A stretch of 64,000 nt of DNA from a virus: IMG/VR virus record IMGVR_UViG_3300035182_000347, positions 5,433 through 69,432 of that record; one strand, written 5' to 3'. Shown here one piece after another: positions 1,290 through 32,234 of this stretch. The first letter of the stretch is position 1. Each line of letters starts with the position of its first letter. The position numbers were made by a program, and so were the translations under genes. The notes below the pieces were generated by a model. That model was not told the DNA's origin and did not search any database. It saw only the letters and a list, made by a program, of their open reading frames with translations.

Positions 1290-1471
1290 AGCCCGAAAAA
1301 CCCAAGGCGAAGGGCGGGAAACGTGAAGGGGCTGGCAGGAAATCAAAGGATGGCGCAACCGATCTTGTTCAGGTCGGATTGCGCATCCAGGCAGACCAAA
1401 AGCCGAAGCTATTGCGCCTTGGGGGCAGTATTTGGGTACGCCGGAAGCTGGATGAGGCGGATGAAATCTAA
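1286..1471 (+). CDS. small DNA-binding protein with GGxRxGAGRK motif
   Basis: KGGKREGAGRK followed by a ribbon-helix-helix-like segment. Confidence 0.6.
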   Translation: MKPEKPKAKGGKREGAGRKSKDGATDLVQVGLRIQADQKPKLLRLGGSIWVRRKLDEADEI

Positions 1472-1500
1472 CTCCAACTTAGGCTATAAAGGAGAAGTAC

Positions 1501-1734
1501 ATGGAACCAAAGATTGATATTGAACCAGACGCATGGGCAACGAAAGATATGTGCATAGGGCCGCATTTAGGGAATGTACGTTACGACAAATTACCTATTC
1601 AAAGTTTCAACCCGTTGCAATACACCCATGAAAAACTCTACTCAGAGAAAGCGGTAATTGGCTTGATGAAGGCCGCTTACTATGATGGCTACACGGAACG
1701 AGAGCAGGAATTAAGGGCGGTGCCGAACGCCTGA
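1501..1734 (+). CDS. hypothetical protein
   Basis: AAGGAG SD; C-terminus (VPNA*) runs into attC-like site at 1722. Confidence 0.65.
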   Translation: MEPKIDIEPDAWATKDMCIGPHLGNVRYDKLPIQSFNPLQYTHEKLYSEKAVIGLMKAAYYDGYTEREQELRAVPNA

Positions 1735-1785
1735 ATTAACCGGACGCCGCTTTAGCGGCGGTCCGAGTTGAATGAAATGTTAGAA
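1722..1785 (-). repeat. attC-like recombination site 1
   Basis: Minus strand reads TTCTAAC-ATTTC-ATTCAACTCGGACCGCCGCTAAAGCGGCGTCCGGTTAAT-TCAGGC-GTTCGGC, closely resembling the aadA-type attC as recalled; extrahelical G on + strand. Confidence 0.85.
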
Positions 1786-2026
1786 CTGACGACTGCACAC
1801 TGTTTTAAGGTGGCGTACCACCTGACATTCACGGATCGTATGCCGTGGAGAGTTCGATAAATGACCGGGGAATCCACGTTTACGGTCAGCCGAAATGCCA
1901 GAACGCGAGCCGCAAGGCAGCGCACCAAAACTGGCCGGTGCGGACGATGGCAGTGTGCAGCCATGAGTTCTAACGCGGGTTATCCGCCACCCATGGAAGC
2001 GCGGCAACACTGAAAAGGAAACAACG

Positions 2027-2389
2027 ATGCGCGAACTGAACGAACACAAGATTAACCCCGGCAACGACACGCTCAAGATTACCGTGCTGGACGAACCTGG
2101 GCACGGTGGCGCAAACCACGCCTACGATATTGAGGGCGGCGAGGCGGTGCCGACACACCTGCGCTTTCAAAACGGACCGATCAACGCGGACGGTAACGGC
2201 GTGAATGGCATTACCCATGAGGCGCTGCTCGTGGTGCTGTGCGACCGCCTGCGCGGGTTTCAGGCGGGGCCGTATGCCTGCAAGGCGAACGCTTGCGCGC
2301 TGACACACTTGGAAGAAGCGCAACACTGGTTGCAGCAGCGCACCATCGAGCGTATGCGGCGAGGCGTCGAAGGCACGCATACGGTTTAA
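2027..2389 (+). CDS. tad1: Tad1-like (Acb2/Tad1 family) anti-Thoeris/anti-CBASS nucleotide-signal sponge
   Basis: MREL...HxY...FQNGPI..GVNGIT.E.L..L.DRL..FQ.GP.AC..N..A.T.LEEA..WL..RT..R.RRGVEGT matches the recalled Tad1 pattern; AAGGA SD. Confidence 0.8.
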   Translation: MRELNEHKINPGNDTLKITVLDEPGHGGANHAYDIEGGEAVPTHLRFQNGPINADGNGVNGITHEALLVVLCDRLRGFQAGPYACKANACALTHLEEAQHWLQQRTIERMRRGVEGTHTV

Positions 2390-2447
2390 TTTTGTGGGCC
2401 GCAGATGGCCTTCTCTCTGCGTTTTTCGCAGCCTTTCGGCCAGCGGC

Positions 2448-2505
2448 GGCTAACGCCTGAGTTCAGGCGCGGCCGGAGGCTGTCACCTGGAACGACGGGT
2501 TGTGC
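2448..2505 (-). repeat. attC-like site 2
   Basis: + strand GGCTAAC-gcctga-GTTCAGG...CCTG(G)AAC-gacgg-GTTGTGC, 58 bp. Confidence 0.8.
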
Positions 2506-2532
2506 ATCTTGCGGTGATACGGAGAAAGAAGA

Positions 2533-3303
2533 ATGAACAGAATTGTTTGCCAGTTTTCCTGCGGCGCTGCCTCGGCGGTGGCGACTAAGTTGGCGCTTTC
2601 GCAGTACGGCGACCGCTGCGTGGTGCTGAATGCCTACATTGCAAACGAGCATGAGGACAACCGCCGCTTTGCCGCCGACTGCGAAAAGTGGTTTGGGCGT
2701 ACGATGACCGTACTGCGTGACGAGAAGTACGACGCGGACGCTATCACTGTTTTTGAGCGGGTCGGCTACATCAAGGGGCCGAAGGGCGCGGCATGTACCA
2801 CCAGGATAAAGCGGGGTTTGCTTCGTGCGTTTGCGCAACCCGGAGACGTGCTAGTGCTCGGCTACACGGCGGAGGAACAGTGGCGATTTGACGACTTTGA
2901 AGCCAACTGGCCCGACCTCCCCGTAGTGGCTCCTCTGATCGAGCGCGGACTGACCAAGGAAGACTGTAAGGCGCTTGTTGAGCGCGCAGGGATGGTGCTG
3001 CCGATGATGTACCGGATGGGCTACGACAACGCCAACTGTATTGGCTGCGTAAAGGGCGGGCTTGGGTACTTCCGCGCAATCCGCGATGACTTCCCCGATC
3101 AGTTCGAGCGGTTGGCGCAAGCGGAGGACAAGGTTGCCGAACTGCATGGAACGAACGCCTACATCCTGCGCCACCGATCCGGGCCGCTTAAAGGGCATAG
3201 GTTCCCGTTGCGCGAGTTACCACCGGGTCCAATTGTAAGAAACGAGGCGCTACCGTCATGCGGGTTGTTTTGCGATGCAGCAGAGCAGGAATACGCGGCA
3301 TGA
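2533..3303 (+). CDS. PAPS-reductase-like / adenine nucleotide alpha-hydrolase protein with Cys cluster
   Basis: N-terminal FSCGAASAVA loop, CTTRIK, NANCIGCVK, terminal CGLFC. Confidence 0.7.
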   Translation: MNRIVCQFSCGAASAVATKLALSQYGDRCVVLNAYIANEHEDNRRFAADCEKWFGRTMTVLRDEKYDADAITVFERVGYIKGPKGAACTTRIKRGLLRAFAQPGDVLVLGYTAEEQWRFDDFEANWPDLPVVAPLIERGLTKEDCKALVERAGMVLPMMYRMGYDNANCIGCVKGGLGYFRAIRDDFPDQFERLAQAEDKVAELHGTNAYILRHRSGPLKGHRFPLRELPPGPIVRNEALPSCGLFCDAAEQEYAA

Positions 3304-3310
3304 TTTTGAC

Positions 3311-3399
3311 GCACAACGCTGAGCTAACCGGGCGCGATGAACCGGACGGCTCGAAGTAAACCCGCATTCCGCGCGCTCCGGTTGAGCGCCGTGTTGGAC
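3311..3399 (-). repeat. attC-like site 3
   Basis: GCACAAC-gctga-GCTAACCGG...CCGGTT(G)AGC-gccgt-GTTGGAC. Confidence 0.8.
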
Positions 3400-3409
3400 G
3401 GAGGATGAT

Positions 3410-3691
3410 ATGGATAGACCAATTACATACGGTGAGCTATTCGCGCGCATGAGAATGCCTGCATCTGTTGAGTTCGATGATCCGCGCTGGTGGCGGCCAA
3501 TCGGTATGGAGATTGATCGGCTGCGCGCGGCATTGAAGCCATTTTCCGCACATCCGCAATTCCAAGCGCCAGACGACTGGCCAGTGACGGTAATTGACCG
3601 GAACGAACCGACCGGAGACCCAGTTGCAGGGGTAACCGCTGGAGATTTTCGACGCGCGGCAGAGGCCATGACGCCCAAGTCACCTGACTGA
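3410..3691 (+). CDS. hypothetical cassette protein
   Basis: GGAGG SD directly after attC-like site 3; stop lies inside site 4. Confidence 0.6.
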   Translation: MDRPITYGELFARMRMPASVEFDDPRWWRPIGMEIDRLRAALKPFSAHPQFQAPDDWPVTVIDRNEPTGDPVAGVTAGDFRRAAEAMTPKSPD

Positions 3692-3734
3692 CGCGGCCTT
3701 ATCGCGGCAGGTCAGGTGGACTTCCGGGTTATGC
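3666..3734 (-). repeat. attC-like site 4 (left core degenerate, GAC instead of AAC)
   Basis: gcccaa-GTCACCTGAC...GTCAGGTG(G)AC-ttccgg-GTTATGC; left arm shares ACGCCCAAGTCAC with site 7. Confidence 0.7.
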
Positions 3735-3758
3735 CGCGCGAATACTACAAAGAAAGGA

Positions 3759-4052
3759 ATGGGCATGAAGATTCAAGGTCCGGTGGAAGTGGAATTGAAA
3801 ATCAGCATCACAAACGAAGAACAACATGGAGTCGTAACTATCAGCATGGGGAAAGGCAGCTACCCAACAGAAGGAGAACTGCGCGAACGGGTAGTTCAGT
3901 TTGAAAATGAAGAAATGCCGACAGGATTCCGCTTGATGACCAAGCGCGAATGGTGGGACTCTGTTTGCCCTCCGTCCTACGACGAGGACGAGGATGGTGT
4001 GCGCAACAAGACGCGCTTTGCTGTTCCAGGTGGCGATGACTACGACGCATAA
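3759..4052 (+). CDS. hypothetical acidic cassette protein
   Basis: AAGGA SD; TAA stop lies within GCATAAC core of site 5. Confidence 0.7.
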   Translation: MGMKIQGPVEVELKISITNEEQHGVVTISMGKGSYPTEGELRERVVQFENEEMPTGFRLMTKREWWDSVCPPSYDEDEDGVRNKTRFAVPGGDDYDA

Positions 4053-4115
4053 CACTGAATGTGAGGCGACTGGCGTGGATTTATGCGGCAGGTCGACTCG
4101 ACCGTACTGTTACCA
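4047..4115 (-). repeat. attC-like site 5
   Basis: GCATAAC...GTGAGGCGAC...GTCGACTC(G)AC-cgtact-GTTACCA. Confidence 0.7.
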
Positions 4116-4126
4116 CGGAGAATGGA

Positions 4127-4402
4127 ATGGAACATATATTTAGCGACAAAATCGTTACAGCGAAGAAGCGCCATCACTGCGACGCAAGCGAACAGTGGCG
4201 ACGAGCTGGCTTCACCATTGCCGACTGCGAAACGGACGAGCAGCGGCTGATGGTTGCCGCTGCCGAGGTAGACAACTGGCGCATCTTGCCTGGGCAAGCC
4301 TACCGTAGGGTGATCGGAATTCACGAAGGCGGATTGAGCACCTACAGGGCGAGGCCGGGCATGGACGCAGTGTGCAGCGACCTTGATATATGGGACGAGT
4401 GA
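4127..4402 (+). CDS. hypothetical cassette protein (HxCD motif)
   Basis: GGAG SD; AKKRHHCD and ILPGQAYRR resemble small phage Zn-finger-like proteins. Confidence 0.65.
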   Translation: MEHIFSDKIVTAKKRHHCDASEQWRRAGFTIADCETDEQRLMVAAAEVDNWRILPGQAYRRVIGIHEGGLSTYRARPGMDAVCSDLDIWDE

Positions 4403-4406
4403 GATT

Positions 4407-4463
4407 GCCTAACGCCTGAATTCAGGGGCGGCGAAGCCGTCCCGCTGGATTGACGTGTTAGGG
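4407..4463 (-). repeat. attC-like site 6
   Basis: GCCTAAC-gcctga-ATTCAGGGGCGGCGAAGCCGTCCCGCTG(G)ATT-gacgt-GTTAGGG, 57 bp. Confidence 0.8.
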
Positions 4464-4482
4464 GCGGAAATTTGGAGAAGAA

Positions 4483-4989
4483 ATGGGATACGGAGCACAC
4501 GAAAAACCGAACGAAGGCGCGACCAATATTTGGCTCACACCACCGCGCATTATTGAAATGCTTGGGCCTTTTGACCTTGACCCATGCGCAGCACCGGAGC
4601 CGCGACCGTGGCCGACAGCACACGCGCACTATGCCGAGGCAGACGGTGATGGGCTGCAACGGGAATGGCATGGGGTTGTGTGGGTGAACCCGCCATACGG
4701 CGACAAGGCCGAGGCGTGGCTGCACAGGCTGGCTAGGCACGGAGAGGGCATCGCGCTGGTTTTCGCCAGGACGGAAACGGCATGGTTTCAGCGCGTAGCG
4801 CGGCACGGCTGGCTTTTGTTTTTCCCGTCAGGGCGGCTGACCTTTCACAAACCGAATGGAGAGCGCGGGGTCGGTAATGCAGGGGCACCGAGCGTTTTCC
4901 TTGCCATTGGCGAGGAAAGCAAACTGCGCCTGAGAAGCTGCGGGATGGAAGGGTTCTTCTGCGAGCCTGAGTTTTTCGCGACGCAATGA
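4483..4989 (+). CDS. phage DNA N6-adenine methyltransferase (Dam-like family)
   Basis: WLTP, FDLDPCA, DGL..W, WVNPPY, ARTET.WF, GRL.F motifs. Confidence 0.9.
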   Translation: MGYGAHEKPNEGATNIWLTPPRIIEMLGPFDLDPCAAPEPRPWPTAHAHYAEADGDGLQREWHGVVWVNPPYGDKAEAWLHRLARHGEGIALVFARTETAWFQRVARHGWLLFFPSGRLTFHKPNGERGVGNAGAPSVFLAIGEESKLRLRSCGMEGFFCEPEFFATQ

Positions 4990-5079
4990 CGCCCAACGCA
5001 GGATATACACCAAGTGACCAGTAACACCCGAAAACACAGAATATAGGACACCAGTAAGCAACAGAACCAGCAGCGAAGA

Positions 5080-5145
5080 ATGAACAATGAACTGATGTTT
5101 TCGAGCAAGACCGATATGTTGTCAACACCACAAGCGTTCTTTTGA
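5080..5145 (+). pseudogene. N-terminal remnant of a second phage Dam-type methylase
   Basis: Translates MNNELMFSSKTDMLSTPQAFF*, resembling the recalled FSSK.D.W.TPQ.FF start of phage Dam proteins. Confidence 0.6.
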
Positions 5146-5150
5146 CAGCA

Positions 5151-5205
5151 ATAAAAACATTTGATGAAGAATCTTCTTGTGTTACCGGAAACGGTGGTCT
5201 ATAGT
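5151..5205 (+). promoter_or_regulatory. sigma70-type early promoter with upstream repeated operator-like element
   Basis: TTGTGT(5177)-17 nt-TATAGT(5200); 28-bp upstream block shared with 8208-8235. Confidence 0.65.
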
Positions 5206-5234
5206 TACACCATCAACAACGCACGGAGCGCAAA

Positions 5235-5984
5235 ATGAAAGTCGAAATCAAAAGTCGTTTTACAGGCGAGGTTCAATTCGCACTTGAGTGCGAAGGGAAC
5301 ACTGTGGCCATTACGCTGGCCGAGGCCGTAAGGTTAGGCACCAACCTGTATGGCGCATACCTTAGCGGCGCGGACCTTAGCGGATCGTCACTGGGGGGCG
5401 CAAATCTTCACTGTGCGAACTTGATGGGCGCTAGCCTTATGGACGCGGACTTGATGTCCGCGGACCTCTATGGATCTGATCTCAGCAGTGCGTCCCTTGA
5501 GGACGCGAATCTCAATGGCGCGAACCTTAGGTCTGCGAATCTTTATGGGGCCTACATGAGGTCCGCGAAACTTCGCAATGCAAACCTTAGCAATACGAAC
5601 CTTATGGACGCGGACTTGATGTCCGCGGATTTGGTTGCCGCCAATTTGTACGGTGCGGACTTTGTCAGTGCGAACCTATCTTGGGTGGATTTGCAGGACG
5701 CAAACATTGATGGCGCGGACCTTAATGGCGCGATCCTTAAGGGTGCCAATCTTGATGGCGCGTCCATCGGGGACGCTGGTAAGCTGACTGGCGAAAGCCC
5801 GTATTTCACTGTTATCTTTGGAGTTAATGCGGAACGCATTGAGTCGTTTCGCACAGAGAAGGGGATTTTTATCCGCAGCGGGTCATTCTTTGGCACTGCG
5901 GCGGATTTCCGGGGCAACAACCCCGCCGGCGGAGTGTACCAGGCCGCCTTGGACCTGGTTGAAGCCCATTATCGGCTGGTCTGA
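5235..5984 (+). CDS. pentapeptide repeat protein
   Basis: Long run of A(D/N)Lxx repeats; IKSRFTG N-terminus and IRSGSFFGT C-terminus. Confidence 0.9.
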   Translation: MKVEIKSRFTGEVQFALECEGNTVAITLAEAVRLGTNLYGAYLSGADLSGSSLGGANLHCANLMGASLMDADLMSADLYGSDLSSASLEDANLNGANLRSANLYGAYMRSAKLRNANLSNTNLMDADLMSADLVAANLYGADFVSANLSWVDLQDANIDGADLNGAILKGANLDGASIGDAGKLTGESPYFTVIFGVNAERIESFRTEKGIFIRSGSFFGTAADFRGNNPAGGVYQAALDLVEAHYRLV

Positions 5985-6033
5985 AGATTTCCGGGACCGC
6001 GTTCTCGCGGCCGGTTTCAAGTTTGGATTGGAG

Positions 6034-6234
6034 ATGAGAGTGAAAACTTCAAAGTATAGGGTGGCGGCTCTGCGAAAGCGGGCCGCCGCGATTGGCCTGA
6101 AGCGCCGTGAAATCTATTCGCATGAGGATGACTGGCCAGCAATTAAAGCGCTGGCAGAATATCTTATAAAACGCAGAGAGAAGGCCGCGAAGGTGGCGGA
6201 TAACGCCAATTTAACCATTACCAATTTCACTTAG
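6034..6234 (+). CDS. small basic hypothetical protein
   Basis: RVAALRKRAAAIGLKRREIY; start uncertain (ATG 6034 or GTG 6040). Confidence 0.55.
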   Translation: MRVKTSKYRVAALRKRAAAIGLKRREIYSHEDDWPAIKALAEYLIKRREKAAKVADNANLTITNFT

Positions 6235-6242
6235 GATCAGAC

Positions 6243-6698
6243 ATGACCATCACGCTTGAGGCCATCAAGGCAGAGCAGAAACGCATTGCCGCGATGATTT
6301 CGGAGTTTGAGAAGCAACCCGCTGCATTGGCATTCCCGATCAGCATCCGATTTCCCGATCTTGCGGAGGGCGAAAAGTTTGTCGGCGTCATCATCAGCGC
6401 GGACGGTAGCCGCAAGCATGCGGTGATTCTGCTGCCGGGCGAAGCCGATATCGCCAACTGGAAAACGCAACACAAGTGGGCAGAGAGCATAGGCGGCGAA
6501 CTATTTGACCGTGTTGAAGGCGCTCTGCTGTTCGCCGCGATGAAGGATGAATTCAAGCCCGAATGGTATTGGACTTGCGAGAAGCACGAAGTCGACTCGG
6601 CCTATGCCTGGGATCAGGACTTCGGACACGGCTACCAGTACGGCCACGATACGAGCTACAAGTTCAGAGCCCGAGCAGTCCGCAGGGTTTCACTCTGA
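6243..6698 (+). CDS. DUF1566/C-type-lectin-fold protein
   Basis: WAESIGGEL, WYWT, AYAW.QDF..G.Q, RARAVRR C-terminus. Confidence 0.8.
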   Translation: MTITLEAIKAEQKRIAAMISEFEKQPAALAFPISIRFPDLAEGEKFVGVIISADGSRKHAVILLPGEADIANWKTQHKWAESIGGELFDRVEGALLFAAMKDEFKPEWYWTCEKHEVDSAYAWDQDFGHGYQYGHDTSYKFRARAVRRVSL

Positions 6699-6769
6699 AC
6701 ACCATCGAAGTCTCACTATTGACGTAACTTCCCCCGCCATAAAAGACGGGGTTCTAGGAGCAAAATCTG

Positions 6770-7198
6770 ATGAACAACTGGAACTTCACCGGAAACATCG
6801 GCAAGGATGCCGAAACGCGATTCATCCAAAGCGGCGAGGCTGTCGTTCAATTCTCGGTCGGTGTGAAATCTGGCTACGGCGACAAAGCCACAACCACATG
6901 GGCGCGTTGCACCATGTGGGGCAAGCGTGGAGAGTCTGTCGCGCAATACCTCACCAAAGGATCGCTTGTCGGAATCTCCGGCGAGGTCACGCTGCGCGAA
7001 TTCACCAACAAGGAAGGCAACAAGCAGACGACGCTGGAAGTGCGCGTGAATGATCTGACGCTTATGGGAGGCCGAAAGGACGGCGGTAGCTCACCAGATA
7101 ACGAGTCACACCAGTCAAGCGCTCTATCTAGGTCAAGGCCGCAGCCAGCAAGCGGCGGCAATGCGTTTGATGATCTAGATTCAGATATCCCGTTCTGA
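6770..7198 (+). CDS. ssb: single-stranded DNA-binding protein
   Basis: GNIGKDAE, YLTKGSLV.ISG, acidic DSDIPF tail. Confidence 0.95.
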   Translation: MNNWNFTGNIGKDAETRFIQSGEAVVQFSVGVKSGYGDKATTTWARCTMWGKRGESVAQYLTKGSLVGISGEVTLREFTNKEGNKQTTLEVRVNDLTLMGGRKDGGSSPDNESHQSSALSRSRPQPASGGNAFDDLDSDIPF

Positions 7199-7247
7199 CA
7201 ATTACCTCAATGCCTCAAAAACGCAGAGAGAAGGCCGCGAAGGTGGC

Positions 7248-7312
7248 GGCTAACGCCCAAGTCACAGGCGCGGCGGCATCATCGACGCGTCCTGTAGACT
7301 GACGTGTTATGC
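7248..7312 (-). repeat. attC-like site 7
   Basis: GGCTAAC-gcccaa-GTCACAGG...CCTGT(A)GAC-tgacgt-GTTATGC. Confidence 0.8.
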
Positions 7313-7324
7313 ATTCGGGGTGAT

Positions 7325-7690
7325 ATGCCATACCTAAACGAAGACGGGACGATAGACACATGGAAAGGCTACATACGCAAATGCGGACACTGCGGAGCGA
7401 TAGAAAAGGTATTTGATGAGGCCACAGACCAAAACGTAGGACGATATGAAGAAATCTACGCATTGGAAGCTACGATATGCAAATTGTTCAGTGGGACGCG
7501 CGGGCCGGGGTTGCCAAATGTTTTGTGCGTTGAGTGCATGACGAGGCTGATGCCAAACCTGCACAAGCTGAGGGATGCAATTGAACTAGATATTTTCGTA
7601 AATAGACTGAAAGGTGCAATAAATGAAAAACGAAAGCAAGGAACTAAAGACAACCGGACAACTACGGACGATGCTTGCGAATGCTGCTAA
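7325..7690 (+). CDS. hypothetical protein with two CxxC pairs
   Basis: CGHC and CVEC; starts 13 nt after site 7. Confidence 0.6.
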   Translation: MPYLNEDGTIDTWKGYIRKCGHCGAIEKVFDEATDQNVGRYEEIYALEATICKLFSGTRGPGLPNVLCVECMTRLMPNLHKLRDAIELDIFVNRLKGAINEKRKQGTKDNRTTTDDACECC

Positions 7691-7862
7691 AGGTGTACTC
7701 AACGGAGACTTGGACATCGAGCGTGCCACGGCGCTGCACAAGCTGGCGAAGAACATCAGCGAGAGCCTGTACAGCGAAACCAAGATAGCAATGTTCAGCC
7801 ATGAGATCGGCAGCGCCATTCCGAAGATGGGAGACCTACCGCTTGGCGGCAGCGATGAATAA
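7623..7862 (+). CDS. hypothetical phage protein
   Basis: 79 aa; TAA stop lies in GAATAAC cassette end. Confidence 0.65.
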   Translation: MKNESKELKTTGQLRTMLANAAKGVLNGDLDIERATALHKLAKNISESLYSETKIAMFSHEIGSAIPKMGDLPLGGSDE

Positions 7863-7875
7863 CGCAGGAAACGAA

Positions 7876-8184
7876 ATGACAACGCCTATCGCACAAGGTC
7901 CGGATGAAAATGTGGAGCAGGACGCCGCCCGTTACCGCTGGTTGCGTGACCGGATGGAGGTGCTCTACAAAGAAACGATGTCTGGCCGGGAACCCCGCGC
8001 CACGCTGGCTATGCGCATTGGGCATGAATTTCTGGATAGCAAAATGCGCCCGGCCGCTGGGTGGATGGCCACCCTATATTTCGACGAATGCCGAGAGAAG
8101 GTGGACGCTGCAATAGACGATGCCATGAAGATGGCTAACAACCAAGCTAAGTGTCCTGGCTGCAGTTTTCCCGGTCCCGCTTGA
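7876..8184 (+). CDS. hypothetical protein (DAARYRWLR motif, Ead/Ea22-like)
   Basis: DAARYRWLRD...DAAIDDAM is common in phage early genes; runs into site 8. Confidence 0.65.
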   Translation: MTTPIAQGPDENVEQDAARYRWLRDRMEVLYKETMSGREPRATLAMRIGHEFLDSKMRPAAGWMATLYFDECREKVDAAIDDAMKMANNQAKCPGCSFPGPA

Positions 8185-8198
8185 GCGCAGAGTTAGCC
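8133..8198 (-). repeat. attC-like site 8
   Basis: GGCTAAC-aaccaa-GCTAAG...CTT(G)AGC-gcaga-GTTAGCC; cores perfectly complementary. Confidence 0.75.
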
Positions 8199-8207
8199 GC
8201 GACATCC

Positions 8208-8261
8208 ATAAAAACATTTGAGGAAGAATCTTCTTTCGAATCTTTGAATTATACGTATAAT
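8208..8261 (+). promoter_or_regulatory. sigma70-type early promoter, second copy
   Basis: TATAAT at 8256-8261; upstream block 27/28 identical to 5151-5178. Confidence 0.65.
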
Positions 8262-8285
8262 TAAATCGTCAACAACGAACAAGGA

Positions 8286-8525
8286 ATGAAAATGACGTCA
8301 ATGTTCAAAACCCAAGAGCATCCAATGATGGTTGAGGCCACCGCTCATATTTTTACCTTGCTTAACGGTAAGGTTTATGAGTTTGTGAACATAGACGGAA
8401 CAGACCAATTTGCGTTGTCTGGATCGTCCAACTATTACGACGCCGCCCAGTTTGGGCGCGCCAAAGAAAATGCGATCTCCAAGGGGGCAGTGTTCACCGA
8501 ATCTCGCGGCTGGACCTTCAAGTAA
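8286..8525 (+). CDS. hypothetical protein
   Basis: AAGGA SD downstream of promoter. Confidence 0.6.
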   Translation: MKMTSMFKTQEHPMMVEATAHIFTLLNGKVYEFVNIDGTDQFALSGSSNYYDAAQFGRAKENAISKGAVFTESRGWTFK

Positions 8526-8573
8526 GTAAACAACCCGCTCATAGATGGGCGGGAAACAAATCAGGAGAACACT

Positions 8574-8948
8574 ATGACCGCTTATACCCCATACGTCTAT
8601 GGCGCAAGCAGCACGACTTTTGAAGCCGAAAATGCCTGCGAAGTGGCTGAAAAGATTATGCGCTCGAACAGAATGCGAGAGGTGCTTGGCCTAAACGGCC
8701 TAGCAGGATACAACTTGCATGGCTTGAAGCTTGAAAGGGCTGTGATCACCAAGGACGGACTGACTCGTAAGCTGGTCATCCAGTGGCAGGCGATGCAGAC
8801 ACTGCCGCAAGAGCAAAATGGCGAGCATAACTCGATAGAAACCAAGACCGTTTATATGGAGCACGGTATCGACAACACGCCAGAAACAGAATGGCGTTGG
8901 GTGAAGGACGGAAAAGGCAAGCTAAATGCTCAAATTTTCCAATCCTAA
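8574..8948 (+). CDS. hypothetical protein
   Basis: AGGAG SD, 124 aa. Confidence 0.65.
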   Translation: MTAYTPYVYGASSTTFEAENACEVAEKIMRSNRMREVLGLNGLAGYNLHGLKLERAVITKDGLTRKLVIQWQAMQTLPQEQNGEHNSIETKTVYMEHGIDNTPETEWRWVKDGKGKLNAQIFQS

Positions 8949-9198
8949 AATCGGTGGCTCTCGCAATGGCGCAGGCCTGGCAACCGACGCTGCCGGCCTG
9001 AAAACCGCAAAGCACACCGTAACCCTGGACGTAGTGACGGTGGATCGCCTGAAGGAATTGGGTGCGGGAAATCTGTCTCGCGGAATACGACAAGCCGCTC
9101 GGCGACTGGCGGATAAGGCAAAAAGTGAGCCGACCAACCCGATGCAGCCCGCAATGCCAAGCATCGGCTGGCAAAGCAACACAAGGAGAGAACCATGA
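8926..9198 (+). CDS. small DNA-binding protein (GGxRxGAG motif)
   Basis: GGSRNGAG...VTLD...LGAGNLSRGIR. Confidence 0.6.
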   Translation: MLKFSNPKIGGSRNGAGLATDAAGLKTAKHTVTLDVVTVDRLKELGAGNLSRGIRQAARRLADKAKSEPTNPMQPAMPSIGWQSNTRREP

Positions 9199-10016
9199 GT
9201 AAGGTGAACGCATCAGACGTTTCAACCGAAGTCGAGGCTGAAATCGGCCTTCCGGTGTTGGTCGACAACGCCGTGGATTTGGTATTTAGAGGACCGGACG
9301 GGGCCATCGATCAGGCCCTTGCTACAGCCGACCGCTCAGCGGCCATGAACGCAGGCGACCGTTCGAAGGCCACGAACATAGGCGTCCGCTCGGCTGCCGT
9401 GAACATGGGTGACCATTCGGTTGCCATTAACGCAGGCGACCGTTCGACGGCAATAAACACTGGAGACCACTCAGAGGCCATGAACATGGGCTACCAATCG
9501 TCGGCCATGAATATGGGAGAATTTTCTGCGGCCACGAACACGGGAGAACAATCTGTGGCCATGAACATTGGCCGCCACTCAGCGGCCATGAACACGGGCT
9601 ACTGGTCGACGGCCATGAACGCGGGCGAATATTCGGAGGCCACGAACACTGGCAGCTACTCGGCTGCCGTGAACACTGGCGACCAATCGGTTGCCATGAA
9701 CGCAGGCTACCGTTCGACATCCATGAACACGGGGGAATACTCAACGTCCAAGAACGAAGGCGACCAGTCGTTTGCCCTGAACACGGGCTACCACTCGGTA
9801 GCCGAGGTGATGGGCACCGGTTCGGTCGCGGCATCCCTTAGCGCCCAAGGGCGCGCCCGCGCTGCCGCTGGCGGCGCAATCGTCCTCTGCTACCGCGACG
9901 AGATTAGCGGTCGCCTAATCAATATCCGCGCCAGCATAGTTGGCGAAAATGGCGTCAAGCCGGACACCTGGTACGTTCTCGACGCCGCTGGCGGATTTAT
10001 CGAGGTTACCGAATGA
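9195..10016 (+). CDS. 11-aa repeat protein (NTGxxSxAxxx)
   Basis: Roughly 14 tandem 33-nt repeats; C-terminal VGENGVKPDTWY; AAGGAG SD. Confidence 0.8.
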   Translation: MSKVNASDVSTEVEAEIGLPVLVDNAVDLVFRGPDGAIDQALATADRSAAMNAGDRSKATNIGVRSAAVNMGDHSVAINAGDRSTAINTGDHSEAMNMGYQSSAMNMGEFSAATNTGEQSVAMNIGRHSAAMNTGYWSTAMNAGEYSEATNTGSYSAAVNTGDQSVAMNAGYRSTSMNTGEYSTSKNEGDQSFALNTGYHSVAEVMGTGSVAASLSAQGRARAAAGGAIVLCYRDEISGRLINIRASIVGENGVKPDTWYVLDAAGGFIEVTE

Positions 10017-10103
10017 AAACGAACTGCGGGCAGACGACGAAGGCAACGAGCAATGCCAGTCCTATCTGACAGCGGGCCTGATTGAATACGCGGAGGAAGA
10101 GGA

Positions 10104-10469
10104 ATGCCAGTTTCTGAACTGATTGACGATCTACGCGGCCGGATAAACCCGGTATACGCGTCCCAGCCCGGAACAGAAAGCCATGAGCGCAGGCTGTGTG
10201 CCGAGGCACTGGAGGCGCAGCGCGACAGAATCAACGAACTTGAAGGAGCGATAGGCCGCGGCTACCGAATGCTGCTATCTGAGCCTGACACGAAAGGCGC
10301 TCTATTCAAAACCGAGAACATCCTGCGGGAAGCGCTGGAGCTGGCAGCCAAAAACCTGATCTCCGTCAGAGGCCGGCACCATACCGAGCAGGCGTACAAG
10401 CTGCCGCATGAGGCGGTTGAGAAAGTAGGCACCCTGCCGGAGTCGCAACGTAATGCCAAATCGTCGTGA
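10104..10469 (+). CDS. hypothetical protein
   Basis: GAGG SD, 121 aa. Confidence 0.55.
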   Translation: MPVSELIDDLRGRINPVYASQPGTESHERRLCAEALEAQRDRINELEGAIGRGYRMLLSEPDTKGALFKTENILREALELAAKNLISVRGRHHTEQAYKLPHEAVEKVGTLPESQRNAKSS

Positions 10470-10484
10470 GGATACTGTAGCGCC
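10463..10484 (+). promoter_or_regulatory. putative late promoter (variant GTCGTGAG), leaderless
   Basis: GTCGTGAG-GA-TACTGT-6 nt-ATG(10485). Confidence 0.65.
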
Positions 10485-10988
10485 ATGCCAAAAATAGTTA
10501 GATTCGACAAGGATGAAGCCCTTACCGACTGGAAAACCGGGAAATATACGGTACGCGATCTTGCGTCTAAATATAAGGTTTCACCGGGCACAATCCATAA
10601 GCTCGTTGTCGGAGTAGACAAGTCACTAGCCCCTTTAATAAACAAAGCAGTTGAAATAAAACAAGAACTTACAAATTTTAATGAACGGGAGATAAACAGA
10701 TTTGAACAAGAAGTAAGCGAGCGTACAAAACACATTCAATTCTTCACCAGCGCTAACGCACTGATTGCCAAGACGGTCATCAATAAAGTGCAGGCGGATG
10801 GCGATGAAGCCAGCTATCAGGACTTGAATGCAGCGGCCAATGCCATCACCAAGGCCCAAGAGAATGTTCTGGGCAAGCAGCCGGATAGTGTGGTCAATGT
10901 TGGGGTGACGCAGCGGACGGTGATTCAGTCGGCAGATCGGGTGCGCGAGATTCGACAAAAGCTGATAAGGGACATCTGTGGCGAGTAG
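10485..10988 (+). CDS. terS: terminase small subunit
   Basis: N-terminal HTH (TVRDLASKYKVSPGTI); overlaps terL. Confidence 0.75.
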   Translation: MPKIVRFDKDEALTDWKTGKYTVRDLASKYKVSPGTIHKLVVGVDKSLAPLINKAVEIKQELTNFNEREINRFEQEVSERTKHIQFFTSANALIAKTVINKVQADGDEASYQDLNAAANAITKAQENVLGKQPDSVVNVGVTQRTVIQSADRVREIRQKLIRDICGE

Positions 10989-12534
10989 CCTTTCGGAAGA
11001 GGATGAGATTCTGCGGGTAATGCTGCTGGATGACTTCCAGCTATTCGTCGAGTATTTCTTCCGGGCGCAGTACGGCCGGCGCTTTGTGGTGGCCGAGCAT
11101 CATGCGCAGATTACTGAGGCATTGACGCGGGTGGCGGCCGGAGAGTGCAAGAGGCTGATTATCAATATCCCGCCTCGCGCCGGAAAGACTGAGATTGCCG
11201 TCAAGATGTTCGTCGCTTGGTGCCTGGCGCACAATCCGGCGGCGAAGTTCATCCACCTTTCGTACTCCGATGACCTAGCACTGGACAACTCCAGCTCGAT
11301 TCGGGACGTGGTGAAGTCTGCCGAGTATCAGAAGCTCTTTCCGATTGCGCTCAAGGCTGACTCTGACAGCAAAAAGAAGTGGCTGACCAATGAGGCGGGC
11401 GGCATGTACGCGACGGCGGCAGGGGGCGCGATTACCGGATTCGGAGCGGGATTGATGCACCGAATCAGGACGGGAACGGAATGCGCGGCGGATGGATTTG
11501 GCGGCGGAATTTTAATTGACGACGCCTTGAAGCCAGATGATGCGTACTCGGAAACCGTGCGCGGCCGTGTTAATAATCGCTTCAACAACACCATCGCCAG
11601 CCGGGTGAATAGCCCGGATACGCCGATTGTCGTGGTCATGCAGCGGCTGCACGAAAACGACCTGACCGGCTATCTACTGGCCGGTGGAAGTGGCGAGAAA
11701 TGGGAGCACCTGTGCATTCCGGCGATCAATTCGCATGGTGAGTCAATTTGGCCAGACAAGTGGTCGATTGAACGGCTGCGGCAGATGGAAGCGGCAGACC
11801 CTTATACCTTCGCCGGGCAGTACATGCAGGTGCCGTCGCCACTTGAGGGGGGATTATTCAAGCCTGACAACATCGCCATCATTCTGGTATTGCCGGTTGA
11901 GTCAATCGAATGGGTACGCGGTTGGGACTTCGCCAGCACCACGACGGGCGACTGGACGGCGGGCGTAAAGTTGGGCAGATTGCGCGAGGGCCGATTGATT
12001 ATCGGCGATGTGGTGCGCATTCGCGTGGGTCCGGACGAACGCGATGCCGCGCTACTACATACGGCGGCGCGAGATGGCTATGAGTGCAAGCAATCCATCC
12101 CCCAAGACCCTGGGCAAGCCGGCGTAACGCAGGTCAAGTACCTCTTGCGCCAACTGGCCGGGTACAGCGTCAAGTCAAGCCCGGAGACGGGTAACAAGGT
12201 GGTGCGCGCCGAGCCGGTAGCGAGTCAGGTCAATGTCGGCAACGTGATGATGCTCAAGGCCGAGTGGAATTCGGCGTTGATCAACGAAATGCGCATGTTC
12301 CCCAATGGTACATGGGACGATCAGGTCGACGGTCTGAGCCGGGCGTTCGGTCTGCTGATCGGGCGCAACCCGTCAGAGATATTCATCCCTGACACCAGCA
12401 TCAAGGATGTCATTGCGGCGGCTGGGACGTGTGGGCGGTGCGCGTCATTCGGTGATGGCATGTGTAAAGAGAACTTCGGACTACAGGTAGGCGCATCGGA
12501 TATTGGGTGCGGGATGTTCATTGCGGGGTGGTAG
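10978..12534 (+). CDS. terL: terminase large subunit
   Basis: LIINIPPRAGKT Walker A, ILIDD Walker B, VMQRLHE.D, RGWDFA and DDQVD nuclease motifs. Confidence 0.95.
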   Translation: MASSLSEEDEILRVMLLDDFQLFVEYFFRAQYGRRFVVAEHHAQITEALTRVAAGECKRLIINIPPRAGKTEIAVKMFVAWCLAHNPAAKFIHLSYSDDLALDNSSSIRDVVKSAEYQKLFPIALKADSDSKKKWLTNEAGGMYATAAGGAITGFGAGLMHRIRTGTECAADGFGGGILIDDALKPDDAYSETVRGRVNNRFNNTIASRVNSPDTPIVVVMQRLHENDLTGYLLAGGSGEKWEHLCIPAINSHGESIWPDKWSIERLRQMEAADPYTFAGQYMQVPSPLEGGLFKPDNIAIILVLPVESIEWVRGWDFASTTTGDWTAGVKLGRLREGRLIIGDVVRIRVGPDERDAALLHTAARDGYECKQSIPQDPGQAGVTQVKYLLRQLAGYSVKSSPETGNKVVRAEPVASQVNVGNVMMLKAEWNSALINEMRMFPNGTWDDQVDGLSRAFGLLIGRNPSEIFIPDTSIKDVIAAAGTCGRCASFGDGMCKENFGLQVGASDIGCGMFIAGW

Positions 12535-12540
12535 CAGATA

Positions 12541-12562
12541 GTCGTGACGCCACAATAGACGC
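12541..12562 (+). promoter_or_regulatory. putative late promoter, leaderless
   Basis: GTCGTGAC-GC-CACAAT-6 nt-ATG(12563). Confidence 0.8.
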
Positions 12563-14779
12563 ATGAGCTCAGACCTTACCCATTCAGTCGCCTTTAACCA
12601 TTCCGCGCCACAAGATGAGCGCACCTCTGCGCTTGCAGAGCTGCAGAAGGCGGCCATGCCAACACGCGTCATTTCGGCTGAGGTTGTTGCCAAGATGATT
12701 GAGATGGCTGATATGACCAAAGCCATCAGCCAGAATGTCGTCCCGTTCCCTGGCCCAAACCAAGGAAAGCCGGGTATGCAGTCGATTCGGCTGGATGATC
12801 GGCAGCTTGGCCTGCAAGGTGAGTATTGGGAAAAGCCGGCCGCGATGAGCTTTGATGCTCTGCGCGCCATGGTCGATCAGACGCCCGTCCTGAACGCTGT
12901 GGTGATGACGCGGATACGCCAGGTGCAGCGCTTCTGTCGCGTGCAGGAATCCGGCGAAGGCATGGGCTTCACCATCAGACATGTGGACAAAGACCATCAG
13001 ATCAGCGCTAGCGAAAAAGAATCCATAGGCCTACTGAACAAGTTCATGGCGAATTGCGGCTGGGAGTTCAATGCGCGCAATCGGCGCAAGTTGCGGCGCG
13101 ACAACTTCGGAAACATGATGGGCAAACTGGTGCGGGATTCGCTGGTGCTTGACTCCTGCGCCATCGAGACTGAGTTCAAGCGTAACCGCGATGCCGGCAT
13201 GGATGGTATGGCGGCCATTGATGGCTCAACCATCCGTCTGACGGCAGAAGGCGGCTACAGAGGCAATGAGGATATTTTCGCCGTACAGGTGATTCAGGGG
13301 GCCATTCGTACCGCCTACACCTACGACGACCTGATATACGATCCGCGCAATCCACGATCTGACATCCTGGTGGGCGGCTACGGCCTGGGTGAGACGGAAT
13401 TGCTGGTGCGCGTGGTCACTGGCTTCCTCAATGCCATGACGCACAACATCACAGGATTTGACCGGAACGCTATACCAAAAGGAGTCCTGCATCTGTCTGG
13501 AGACTACACGCAAGATGATCTGGTGGCCTTCAGGCGCTACTGGAACAGCATGGTCAAGGGCACGAATAGTCAGTGGTCGGTGCCGGTGCTCATCAGTAAG
13601 GATCAGGAAAGCAAGGCCAGTTTTGAGAAGTTTGGTGTGGATTACGACGAGATGCATTTCTCGAAGTGGATGACCTTCCTGGCCAGCTTGATATGTGCCA
13701 TCTACGGCATGAGTCCGGCTGAAATCAACTTCGATGCCTTCTCGGGCGGTAATTCATCGCCTCTTAGTGGCTCAGATACCGCCGAAAAGCTGGCCGACTC
13801 GAAAGACAAGGGCCTGCGGCCTCTGCTGAGCTACTTCGAGAATCTATTCACCGACTACGTAGCCAATGACTTCAGCGACAAGTACGTGTTCCGCTGGACC
13901 GGGCTGGATGACAAAGATGTCGAGACCAAGGAAAAGCGCGCCGGCTTGATTTTGACGCTGAACGAAATGCGCGCCCAGGAGGGGTATGACGCAATCGAAG
14001 GCGACCTGGGCGATGCGCCATTGAATCCATCGCTGATTGGCCCATGGCTGCAGATGCAGCAACAAGCCCAGCAACCGGATACCGGAACCCCGCCAGAAGA
14101 CGGGCAAGGCGGCGACGATCCGCCCGAAGGCTTTGGTGGTGGCGATGGTGGCGGCGACTTCGGCCAGAAACCGGATGGCGATGATGATCAAGCTCAGGAC
14201 GGCGCTCCAACCAATGAAGACAGCGAAGAAGAAGCCTTTGGCAAGGCCATCAAGCCGACCGGGAACCCCGGCGTTGGCCTTGATGATGATGTGTTCTTCG
14301 ACCACGACGAGCATGGCCCAACGTCCGGAAAGGTAGTAGCCGTCGGCAAGGACGGATTCACCGTCAATCATGAGCTTACCGGGAAGACCGGTGTGCTGTG
14401 GGACAAGTTCCTAGGCCACAAGAAGCGAGCCGAGCGCAGGCTGATCCCAGTCATGCAAGGCGAGGACGGCATGATTGCCCGCGATGCAGCCACCGGCAAG
14501 CGGACATTCCTTGCTGGCGAACTGCCAGACGACGGGCAAGACGAAGAGATTGTCGGCGAACACATGCAGAAGGCGATGCAGATCATGGCCAGCAGCCAGT
14601 CAGACAAGGTTGATGCCGTGGCGGCGCTGGTTGAACGCATGGCTGAACAGTCACCAGACATTCAGGGTTTGGTTGATGGCCTGGGCGCTGTGATACAGAA
14701 GGCCATGGCCGACTCCGCAAACCAGCACGCCGGGCAACTCTCCGCGCTGGCGATTGCGGTTGAAAAACTAGCTCAGTAA
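12563..14779 (+). CDS. portal protein with long C-terminal extension
   Basis: Follows terL; IDGSTIR, YGLGE.E, PKGVL, SKDKGLRPLL, LTLNEMR resemble Twort/K-type portals. Confidence 0.9.
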   Translation: MSSDLTHSVAFNHSAPQDERTSALAELQKAAMPTRVISAEVVAKMIEMADMTKAISQNVVPFPGPNQGKPGMQSIRLDDRQLGLQGEYWEKPAAMSFDALRAMVDQTPVLNAVVMTRIRQVQRFCRVQESGEGMGFTIRHVDKDHQISASEKESIGLLNKFMANCGWEFNARNRRKLRRDNFGNMMGKLVRDSLVLDSCAIETEFKRNRDAGMDGMAAIDGSTIRLTAEGGYRGNEDIFAVQVIQGAIRTAYTYDDLIYDPRNPRSDILVGGYGLGETELLVRVVTGFLNAMTHNITGFDRNAIPKGVLHLSGDYTQDDLVAFRRYWNSMVKGTNSQWSVPVLISKDQESKASFEKFGVDYDEMHFSKWMTFLASLICAIYGMSPAEINFDAFSGGNSSPLSGSDTAEKLADSKDKGLRPLLSYFENLFTDYVANDFSDKYVFRWTGLDDKDVETKEKRAGLILTLNEMRAQEGYDAIEGDLGDAPLNPSLIGPWLQMQQQAQQPDTGTPPEDGQGGDDPPEGFGGGDGGGDFGQKPDGDDDQAQDGAPTNEDSEEEAFGKAIKPTGNPGVGLDDDVFFDHDEHGPTSGKVVAVGKDGFTVNHELTGKTGVLWDKFLGHKKRAERRLIPVMQGEDGMIARDAATGKRTFLAGELPDDGQDEEIVGEHMQKAMQIMASSQSDKVDAVAALVERMAEQSPDIQGLVDGLGAVIQKAMADSANQHAGQLSALAIAVEKLAQ

Positions 14780-20150: not shown

Positions 20151-20355
20151 TGAGGTCGATCAAGCAAATGACAGGGCGCTGCGGGATAACGACTTATGCG
20201 TGAGTATGGCACGCGATGCGGCGGCGAGAATACCTGTGGGCGAGGCTGGTGATTGTGATACCTGCGGGTCTTGGAATGGACGCCTTGTTGGCGGCATGTG
20301 CTCCCCATGCCGAGATCGTTACTCACGAATGGAGGCTATCAATGGAAAACCGTAA
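20143..20355 (+). CDS. TraR/DksA-like C4 zinc-finger protein
   Basis: MADEVDQA (DxxDxA) plus CDTC...CSPC. Confidence 0.75.
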   Translation: MADEVDQANDRALRDNDLCVSMARDAAARIPVGEAGDCDTCGSWNGRLVGGMCSPCRDRYSRMEAINGKP

Positions 20356-32212: not shown

Positions 32213-32234
32213 GTCGTGACGAGATCATGGCGTG
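32213..32234 (+). promoter_or_regulatory. putative late promoter, leaderless
   Basis: GTCGTGAC-GA-GATCAT-6 nt-ATG(32235). Confidence 0.75.

Follow-up and report, generated by a model that had tools for sequence, protein, structure and literature searches.

How does a phage come to carry a long run of small genes that are separated by hairpins, with the end of one hairpin matching the start of the next? The question is raised by a window of 64,000 nucleotides (nt) that comprises bases 5433-69432 of a linear IMG/VR virus contig of 69,432 bp (record IMGVR_UViG_3300035182_000347; completeness estimate 75%). All long open reading frames (ORFs) of the window are on the + strand. A predicted terminase large subunit (10978-12534) and a predicted portal protein (12563-14779) identify the virus as a tailed phage. 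The small genes form a run upstream of the terminase, in the early region. The array that they make up is very probably a cluster of attC sites lacking integron integrases (CALIN) carried by the phage, that is, a set of integron-type attC sites without an integrase of its own.

A preliminary description of the window, made from the sequence alone, had read several of these genes as cassettes that were once free circles. Because the same structures carry on into the preceding 5.4 kb of the contig, this upstream locus (L001) was also examined and is included in the analysis. It holds eight further hairpin sites and two further remnants. The array extends over 1466-7863 of the window plus the upstream 5.4 kb, a total of 13.3 kb with about 15 hairpin sites and about six remnants. 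Sites of the window are given letters here, and those upstream are given numbers preceded by S. Positions are those of the window unless the contig or another locus is named.

Read along the + strand, a unit opens with a C and an attC hairpin followed by GTTRRRY; a ribosome-binding site then precedes one or occasionally two small genes, and RYYYAA closes the unit. Each site begins with a left core, a 7-mer whose last bases are AAC (GCC usually comes next), and closes with a right core, a 7-mer whose first bases are GTT. Of the left cores in the contig, 18/21 have the AAC, and of the right cores 18/19 have the GTT, which is the inverse-core arrangement of attC sites. At other loci, 42 sites called automatically have both triplets. 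A full site is 56-121 nt long. At 48 of 55 sites, an ORF of 50 codons or more begins no further than 60 nt past the right core, compared with 28 of 55 in a mirror test on the opposite strand. Stop codons near the left cores are too weak a signal to use, since a long ORF ends there at 19/55 sites against 14/55 in the mirror test.

When folds were computed for single-stranded DNA, the z-scores of sites A, D, F, and I ranged from -2.3 to -3.6, and those of C (-1.53) and E (-1.95) were weaker. The 45 distinct sites of other loci have a mean z of -2.88, with 35 of them below -2 and 44 below 0. In the predicted folds, the central spacer appears as internal loops of 9+9 nt in A, 7+7 in E, and 3+3 in I, and as single mismatches only in C, D, and F; minimum-energy folds pair spacers wherever possible. 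For 17 sites aligned with MAFFT, RNAalifold predicted 0 pairs, since such an alignment does not place the variable loops by structure. A generic scan of the whole contig for AAC...GTT hairpins of -9 kcal/mol or lower was dropped. It returned 193 hairpins on the + strand and 174 on the - strand and does not discriminate.

The position of unpaired bases shows which strand of an attC site is being read. According to Nivina 2016 (PMC5027507), the attC bottom strand reads 5'-RYYYAAC-3' in R' and GTTRRRY in R''. Extrahelical bases lie opposite AAC, usually G16 and T23/24, and IntI1 is described as requiring 6 bp from the first to the last. Integron integrases fold this bottom strand and cut it between A and C of 5'-RYYYAA|C-3'. 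In the phage, bulges were read from folds with the AAC:GTT pairing imposed. Single-base bulges lie on the 3' arm, opposite AAC, and S8 is like F in having G20 and T24. The 45 sites of other loci have 96 small bulges on the 3' arm, compared with 25 on the 5' arm. Most frequent among them are T24 (23 cases), G17 (20), G20 (12), G16 (12), and T23 (10), which makes 33 cases for T23/24 and 32 for G16/17.

These positions fit the bottom-strand description given in PMC5027507. Thus the + strand of the phage reads as the attC bottom strand. It follows that the crossover would be at AA|C of the left core and not at G|TT of the right core. The preliminary description had circularised the units at AA|C, which corresponds to this crossover; the split at G|TT that it stated does not apply to this strand. 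Each hairpin therefore belongs to the gene on its right. A gene downstream of its own attC is the reverse of the usual polarity.

A second line of evidence is the relationship between neighbouring cores. The preliminary description proposed that the right core closing one site is the reverse complement of the left core at the far end of the next segment, rather than of its own left core. The matches that it listed are present: GTTAGAACT (1779-1787) pairs with AGTTCTAAC (1966-1974) at 9/9 positions, GTTGTGC (2499) with GCACAAC (3311) and GTTATGC (3728) with GCATAAC (4047) at 7/7, and GTTATGC (7306) with GAATAAC (7857) at 6/7. The pairs that it called weak or absent are so as well, with 1/4 variable positions matching in 4109/4407, 2/4 in 4457/4991, and 0/4 in 3393/3666.

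For a permutation test, only the four variable positions of each 7-mer were scored and the left cores were shuffled among the pairs. The seven listed pairs are borderline alone, with 18/28 matches against a mean of 13.6 (P=0.077; P=0.0099 for at least three perfect pairs). Twelve further consecutive pairs of the contig, ten upstream of the window and two inside it, match at 37/48 positions against 25.2 (P=4.5e-5). For all 19 consecutive pairs the figure is 55/76 against 36.4, with six perfect pairs (P=2e-6). The left and right cores of one and the same site match at chance level (35/76), as the preliminary description had it. Control pairings are likewise at chance, both for left core n with right core n+1 (34/68) and for right core n with left core n+2 (28/72).

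Since the sites of the contig had been chosen by eye, the test was repeated blind with automatic calling. A sequence profile was built from 17 sites, nhmmer was run over all fetched loci, and cores were taken at fixed positions of the profile. After removal of duplicates, 33 consecutive pairs at other loci match at 108/132 positions and 20 of them are perfect. Permutation gives a mean of 70.8, and a score as high as the observed one did not arise in any of 200,000 permutations. Pairs from the same site match at 94/180.

When sites are circularised in silico, with the left core of each swapped for that of the next site, 11 of 15 fold at a lower energy (Wilcoxon P=0.048; the mean change is -0.83 kcal/mol). 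Against the average of folds with other left cores, the circularised fold comes out ahead at 11/15 sites (P=0.013). The gain is modest, as fits a change of only four bases.

If such units are mobile, they should be found elsewhere with other neighbours. Related phages and metagenome contigs do have the same units beside different neighbours, with breakpoints at AAC cores, as the preliminary description had led one to expect. Its tandem array at 2454-4996 indeed consists of five units, namely hairpins B, C, D, E, and F, each followed by one gene. Their bounds are the AAC triplets at 2452-2454, 3315-3317, 3670-3672 (degenerate, GAC), 4051-4053, 4411-4413, and 4995-4997.

Among related phages, homology to L006 and L016 (95.5%) stops exactly at the AAC at contig 1049-1051, after which other cassettes follow. 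The contig block 3344-3888, which consists of the S6 hairpin, a promoter, two genes, and a left core, is common to L016 and L006. In these phages its neighbours differ on both sides, and both of its edges lie 2-10 nt past a left core. Likewise, L004 and L007 have their right flank in common with L008 and differ from it in the left flank. In L054, a homologue of gene 2533-3303 with 47% identity is a cassette between GTTAGCC and GGCTAAC. This homologue seems to start at an ATG in the loop of its upstream attC-like site (L054 1413-1510), and the hairpin would then be partly coding.

Further variants come from Logan contigs of four sediment or microbial-mat metagenome runs (four studies), which were placed on the first 14.5 kb of the contig. 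The endpoints of 15 listed joints fall in sites in 22 of 30 cases, although sites cover 8.6% of the region (P ~1e-17); 12/30 fall in left cores, which cover 1.5%. The joint 2962->7158 (contig positions, as for the other joints) leads from the RYYY of S5 onto the AAC of A with an ambiguity of 2 nt. The joint 2958->3359, found in three runs, removes one cassette. At the joint 3891->6911 and at a loose end at 4817, full hairpins stand where the phage has only remnants. This supports the view that sites of the form AAC-4 nt-GTT are hairpin deletions. In run X4, parts of the region have low or no contig cover and were not interpreted.

Free circles were, we infer, an earlier state of these units, as the preliminary description also held; no circular molecule was seen. 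Joints that lead backwards along the region were not used as evidence for circles, since contigs cannot separate a circle from a rearranged array. A separate observation concerns L046 1453-1936, upstream of the window. In all four runs its contig depth is 497-839, compared with about 4-47 in neighbouring bins (20-100x). Many contigs there share the S2 hairpin from AAC on and are unlike one another before it, so this site type is highly repeated in those communities.

Do the same sites occur in bacterial integrons? A 21-mer from the 3' arm of site F is found exactly in 15 other IMG/VR viral contigs and in five contigs of metagenome-assembled genomes (MAGs), of which three are from Methylococcaceae, one from Nitrosomonadales, and one from Propionivibrio. 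All of these contigs have a conserved block of about 50 nt from AAC to GTT, and their flanks diverge from RYYY and RRRY outward. All five MAGs have integron-integrase matches, four of them above the curated cut-off (265 bits).

Two site families of the phage are found beside intI in integron arrays of Methylococcaceae MAGs, in register with those arrays. In a Methylococcaceae MAG (contig G005:C111), a phage-type site of family 1, the family of site F, lies about 4.2 kb from intI and in register with five ordinary attC sites, as read by eye. The preceding attC ends in GTTAGGG and the phage-type site starts with CCCTAAC on the top strand of the array, so that the cores match at 7/7 positions. 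The reading found on the + strand of the phage is the bottom strand of this array. The ORF of the cassette (136 amino acids, L045 17121-17531) is on the bottom strand as well, which makes it an "inverted" cassette. Between intI and the first cassette of the same contig there is also a 418-amino-acid ORF on the - strand (L045 13497-14753), which may be an inserted transposase.

The second family is found in the integron of another MAG (G011). Its first attC, beside a frameshifted intI, is of the phage family-2 type, is 84% identical to S4 (left core L001 2672), and has the same strand relation. The left core of this attC is complementary to the attI-side GTTAGAAC. Site C of the window is of the same type.

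Within the contig, the sites are confined to one part and one strand. All 13 nhmmer hits are on the + strand at contig 1300-12743, within 11.4 kb, and the other 56.7 kb have none. At 15 other loci with at least two hits, every locus has them on a single strand (for instance nine in L021 and six in L011). A search of the 69-kb contig with TIGR02249 and PF00589 gave no integrase match. Neither a tyrosine recombinase nor a serine recombinase nor a Y1 transposase (PF01797) was found in the contig, so the Y1 (HUH) transposase of a REP/RAYT or IS200/IS605 element is missing. Nor does the contig, which is about 75% complete, have an intI with adjacent attI and promoter as in a complete integron. Two or more close attC sites with no integron integrase nearby define a CALIN, and it is the absence of an integrase from the contig that places the array in this class.

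Could the enzyme belong to the phages themselves? A recombinase of the phage lineage, encoded in the missing quarter of the contig or belonging to a family outside the search, could move the attC-like sites in place of the host IntI. This is an unlikely reading, even though two of five related viral records carry ordinary tyrosine recombinases (399 and 367 amino acids) and the family-1 site is as rare in host genomes (3/301) as a phage-owned system would have it. None of these five records, three of which are 92-95% complete, has an integron-type integrase, and site-carrying viral records that are 93% and 95% complete are without a PF00589 match. The same site also occurs in a host integron array beside intI, in the right orientation and with matched cores. 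Another model does without any dedicated enzyme. The mosaic would be the product of ordinary homologous recombination between phages at conserved intergenic repeats, and the likeness to attC would be a relic. The few site families share about 50 nt each, which is enough for homologous exchange, and the 40-nt repeat upstream of site I (see below) resembles homologous rather than site-specific exchange. However, exchange inside a repeat would not make right core n complement left core n+1. There are also breakpoints where the two sites belong to different families and have nothing in common but AAC and the next one or two bases, as at the joint 2962->7158, and the extrahelical bases are conserved at attC positions. 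This model is judged slightly less probable still than a recombinase of the phage's own.

The hairpins might alternatively be transcription terminators or RNA processing sites whose ends are complementary by chance. They do lie between genes on the coding strand and hence also in mRNA, and attC sites are reportedly weak terminators (PMC9892861). Yet both core permutation tests and the link to integron arrays speak against this explanation. A terminator scan gave 14 candidates where 16.2 were expected, and its sole contact with a site is at 5135-5150 of the upstream locus, the end of S10. No Rfam family was found over the 14.5-kb region at E<=0.1. As the sole explanation the terminator model is contradicted, and its probability is very small indeed; an additional role at the RNA level is possible.

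Several points weigh against the CALIN interpretation itself. No recombination has been observed, and no host is known for the phage. A recombinase could sit in the missing part of the contig. Sites B and S6 (L001 3336-3391) have weak folds, and the bulges G20 and T24 of family 1 are only 3 bp apart, compared with the 6 bp that IntI1 needs according to PMC5027507. Four of the 19 core pairs are poor (S4->S5 1/4, C->D 0/4, E->F 1/4, and F->G 2/4), and the contig sites were selected by eye with the expected pattern known beforehand. At 16 of 19 viral loci with homologues of gene 2533-3303 (42-68% identity), no profile-detected site lies within 1.5 kb. The Logan joints lie at repeated sequence, and some could stem from other phages or from misassembly. 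Finally, a search of 301 Methylococcales genomes found the family-1 site in only three (one of them flagged unpublished), so exchange with hosts may be rare, and a protein search of IMG/VR with the MAG cassette that has the family-1 site found no relative.

The members of the array in the window can be followed from left to right, all on the + strand. A remnant site without hairpin lies at 1466-1484 (left core ATCTAAC, 5 nt, CTTAGGC) and does not fold. Its left core matches the right core of the preceding site (L001 5150-5156) at 4/4 variable positions, and in its place the metagenome contig with the joint 3891->6911 has a full hairpin ending in G+TTAGGC. Site A (1722-1785, GCCGAAC ... GTTAGAA) has a z of -3.61, bulges A20 and G26 on the 3' arm, and an nhmmer E of 1.9e-8. 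It is followed by a short unit without a confident gene (1786-1967), which is closed by a 24-nt inverted repeat (1779-1802 / 1951-1974, 88% complementary). The remnant A2 (1968-1985: TTCTAAC, 4 nt, GTTATCC) has no fold (z +1.08) and is read as an attC with its hairpin deleted. The next cassette gene (2027-2389, 120 amino acids) has flanking cores that match at 3/4. Its protein has a weak match to the Acb2/Tad1 hairpin domain (E 0.0046; 17.6 bits, under the cut-off of 27), and the product may be an immune-signal sponge.

The five units of the tandem array follow. Site B (2448-2505, GGCTAAC ... GTTGTGC) has an nhmmer E of 5.4e-8 and a weak fold (z -0.95, -7.4 kcal/mol). It precedes a gene for 256 amino acids (2533-3303) without a Pfam match, whose relatives in phages are annotated "FAD synthetase-related enzyme" or "integrase". 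Site C (3311-3399, GCACAAC ... GTTGGAC) is a textbook bottom strand, with bulges G16 and T23 at 6 bp from each other and a fold energy of -21.8 kcal/mol. The gene behind it (3410-3691, 93 amino acids, no family) extends with its last codons into site D. This site (3666-3734) has a degenerate left core CCATGAC ... GTTATGC, a z of -2.95, and bulges G17 and G25.

Next comes a gene for 97 amino acids (3759-4052), whose TAA stop (4050-4052) lies within the left core of site E. Site E itself (4047-4115, GCATAAC ... GTTACCA) has a z of -1.95, a bulge G25, and an nhmmer E of 2.3e-4, and is followed by a gene for 91 amino acids (4127-4402, no family). Site F (4407-4463, GCCTAAC ... GTTAGGG), of family 1, has a z of -2.29 and bulges G20 and T24. 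Its gene (4483-4989) encodes a 168-amino-acid protein assigned to the Dam family of DNA N6-adenine methyltransferases (Pfam PF05869, E 2.7e-9). Beyond it stands the orphan left core G (GCCCAAC, 4991-4997) with no hairpin behind; homology to L016 begins directly after it, and two metagenome joints end on its AAC. The non-coding stretch 5072-5147 is 92% identical to the first 75 nt of a different, full-length Dam-like methylase gene (L016 4349-4423) and is a leftover of a replaced methylase cassette.

A second stretch of sites lies further on. An orphan left core GGATAAC (6198-6204) is found within the end of ORF 6041-6234. It is part of a 40-nt repeat (6168-6207 / 7218-7257, 98%) that ends in an AAC core. 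One copy is the coding end of this ORF. The other is non-coding and lies directly before site I, and a perfect inverted copy of 20 nt (2407-2426) precedes site B. The repeat looks like the remnant of a duplicated gene end, and it is a poor fit to simple site-specific exchange. Site I (7248-7312, GGCTAAC ... GTTATGC) has a z of -2.92, bulges A17 and T23, and an nhmmer E of 2e-8. The unit from I to J holds two small genes (7325-7624 and 7623-7862), the second with its TAA stop (7860-7862) inside the orphan left core J (GAATAAC, 7857-7863). Core J has no hairpin and matches the right core of I at 3/4. With a stop inside the left core, as at E and J, a cassette has its own stop at its very end.

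An uncertain, degenerate site lies at 8133-8197 (GGCTAAC ... GTTAGCC), with a 3' arm that resembles F. Its own cores are complementary at 7/7; it has no stable hairpin (z +0.55) and no nhmmer call, and it stays uncertain. An AT-rich direct repeat of 35 nt (5144-5178 / 8201-8235, 91%) lies just upstream of the genes at 5235 and 8286 and closes both stretches that hold attC-like sites. It might serve the phage as promoter or operator.

It is possible that some cassettes carry a promoter with them. The three best sigma-70-like matches in the 14.5-kb region (L001 1767-1794, 3410-3438, and 5174-5201, with 12, 10, and 11 of 12 positions) each lie 20-30 nt past a right core, that of S2, S6, and S10 respectively. 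The number of promoters in this region, 10 against a shuffled expectation of 7.6, is not raised overall. Beyond the array, the late region encodes four very large proteins, an odd cargo inside the structural module. At 20216-22411 there is one of 731 amino acids with a Zeta-toxin-type kinase domain, and at 37295-39622 one of 775 amino acids with a RadC-like JAB domain. The two others are encoded at 23273-30643 (2456 amino acids) and 32232-37271 (1679).

Arrays of this kind are already in print. Qi, Rajabal, Ghaly, Tetu and Gillings (2023, Front Microbiol; PMC9892861) surveyed 10,705 phage genomes and report 17 CALINs and 3 integrons; of six phage attC sites that they tested, five were recombined by IntI1. 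Like the array described here, their phage CALINs are attC cassettes in phages without intI and include DNA methyltransferase cassettes, and gene exchange with bacterial integrons was proposed there as it is here. The example in their main text, called typical, has 3 attC sites and 4 ORFs, compared with about 15 hairpin sites and about six remnants over 13.3 kb in the present phage. Unlike those CALINs as the article presents them, the genes here are on the attC bottom strand, and one site family recurs in at least 15 other viral contigs. Thus the kind itself is known, and the present array is unusually large, judged against the main text of PMC9892861, and inverted. A full-text literature search found no report of phage arrays this large or of such polarity; the supplementary list of the 17 CALINs was outside this comparison. 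A search of a GenBank phage collection in distant mode (query 1400-8400) gave nine records with short gene-level matches only and no close cultured-phage relative.

Sedentary chromosomal integrons, such as the Vibrio cholerae superintegron as described in PMC11023631, resemble the phage array in several ways. They have long co-oriented arrays of one-gene cassettes, attC families, and cross-complementary cores, and only the bottom strand recombines. In contrast to the phage, they have intI, attI, and the promoter Pc, their genes are mostly on the top strand with attC downstream of the gene, and folding of their bottom strands is limited by a position on the leading-strand template (PMC11023631). 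The phage array has none of these three elements, and its genes are on the bottom strand.

The cassette of the Methylococcaceae MAG, with its bottom-strand gene and a family-1 attC 5' of it, has the polarity of the phage. It is a single odd one among ordinary cassettes, whereas in the phage this polarity rules the whole array. The inverted integron cassettes described in the literature are mostly toxin-antitoxin cassettes. Another comparison is with the promoter/stem-loop "mobile regulatory cassettes" of T4-type phages, in which repeated intergenic stem-loops flank small accessory genes in the hyperplastic region. These are thought to act by homologous recombination and have no AAC/GTT cores. 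The array described here differs from them in its cross-complementary ends, its attC-type extrahelical bases, and its link to integrons.

How might such an array work? In the proposed mechanism, the integron integrase of an infected cell would fold the bottom strands while the + strand is single-stranded and would cut them at AA|C. Units would be excised as circles and inserted at other attC sites, either in co-infecting phages or in a chromosomal integron of the host. Each insertion would split the incoming attC, and the outcome would be the pattern described above, with every right core complementary to the left core of the site that follows. Hairpins would sometimes be deleted, leaving AAC-four bases-GTT or an orphan AAC core, and the cassette would thereby be fixed. 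In this way phages could trade early accessory genes with one another and at times with integrons of the host, an exchange that may still be going on with IntI as its probable enzyme.

Besides being the coding strand, the + strand is G-rich across the first 38 kb. Replication in the direction of transcription would place the bottom strands on the lagging-strand template, although this is speculation. In Vibrio, a lagging-template orientation of the bottom strands is reported to raise excision (PMC11023631). A wider picture can be offered tentatively. A group of uncultivated phages may keep its early accessory genes (methylases, small genes of unknown function, and perhaps anti-defence genes) in the form of an "inverted integron without an integrase", with the bottom strands on the coding, G-rich, and probably lagging-template strand. 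These phages might borrow the SOS-induced IntI of the host for rapid shuffling among themselves and, now and then, with host integrons, and hairpin deletion might lock useful cassettes in place. If this is true, the phages use the very orientation that makes cassette excision run wild in Vibrio.

Bacteria capture genes with integrons, in which anti-phage defences are now known to be stored. It was not until 2023 that phages with a few attC sites were described (PMC9892861). Here, the hyperplastic early region of a phage is organised almost wholly as attC cassettes. Its reversed polarity of genes and its scars of deleted hairpins are simple predictions open to bench assays. The array would offer a concrete, testable mechanism for the mosaicism of phage genomes at the resolution of single genes, and also one for gene traffic between the accessory genes of phages and the integrons of bacteria.

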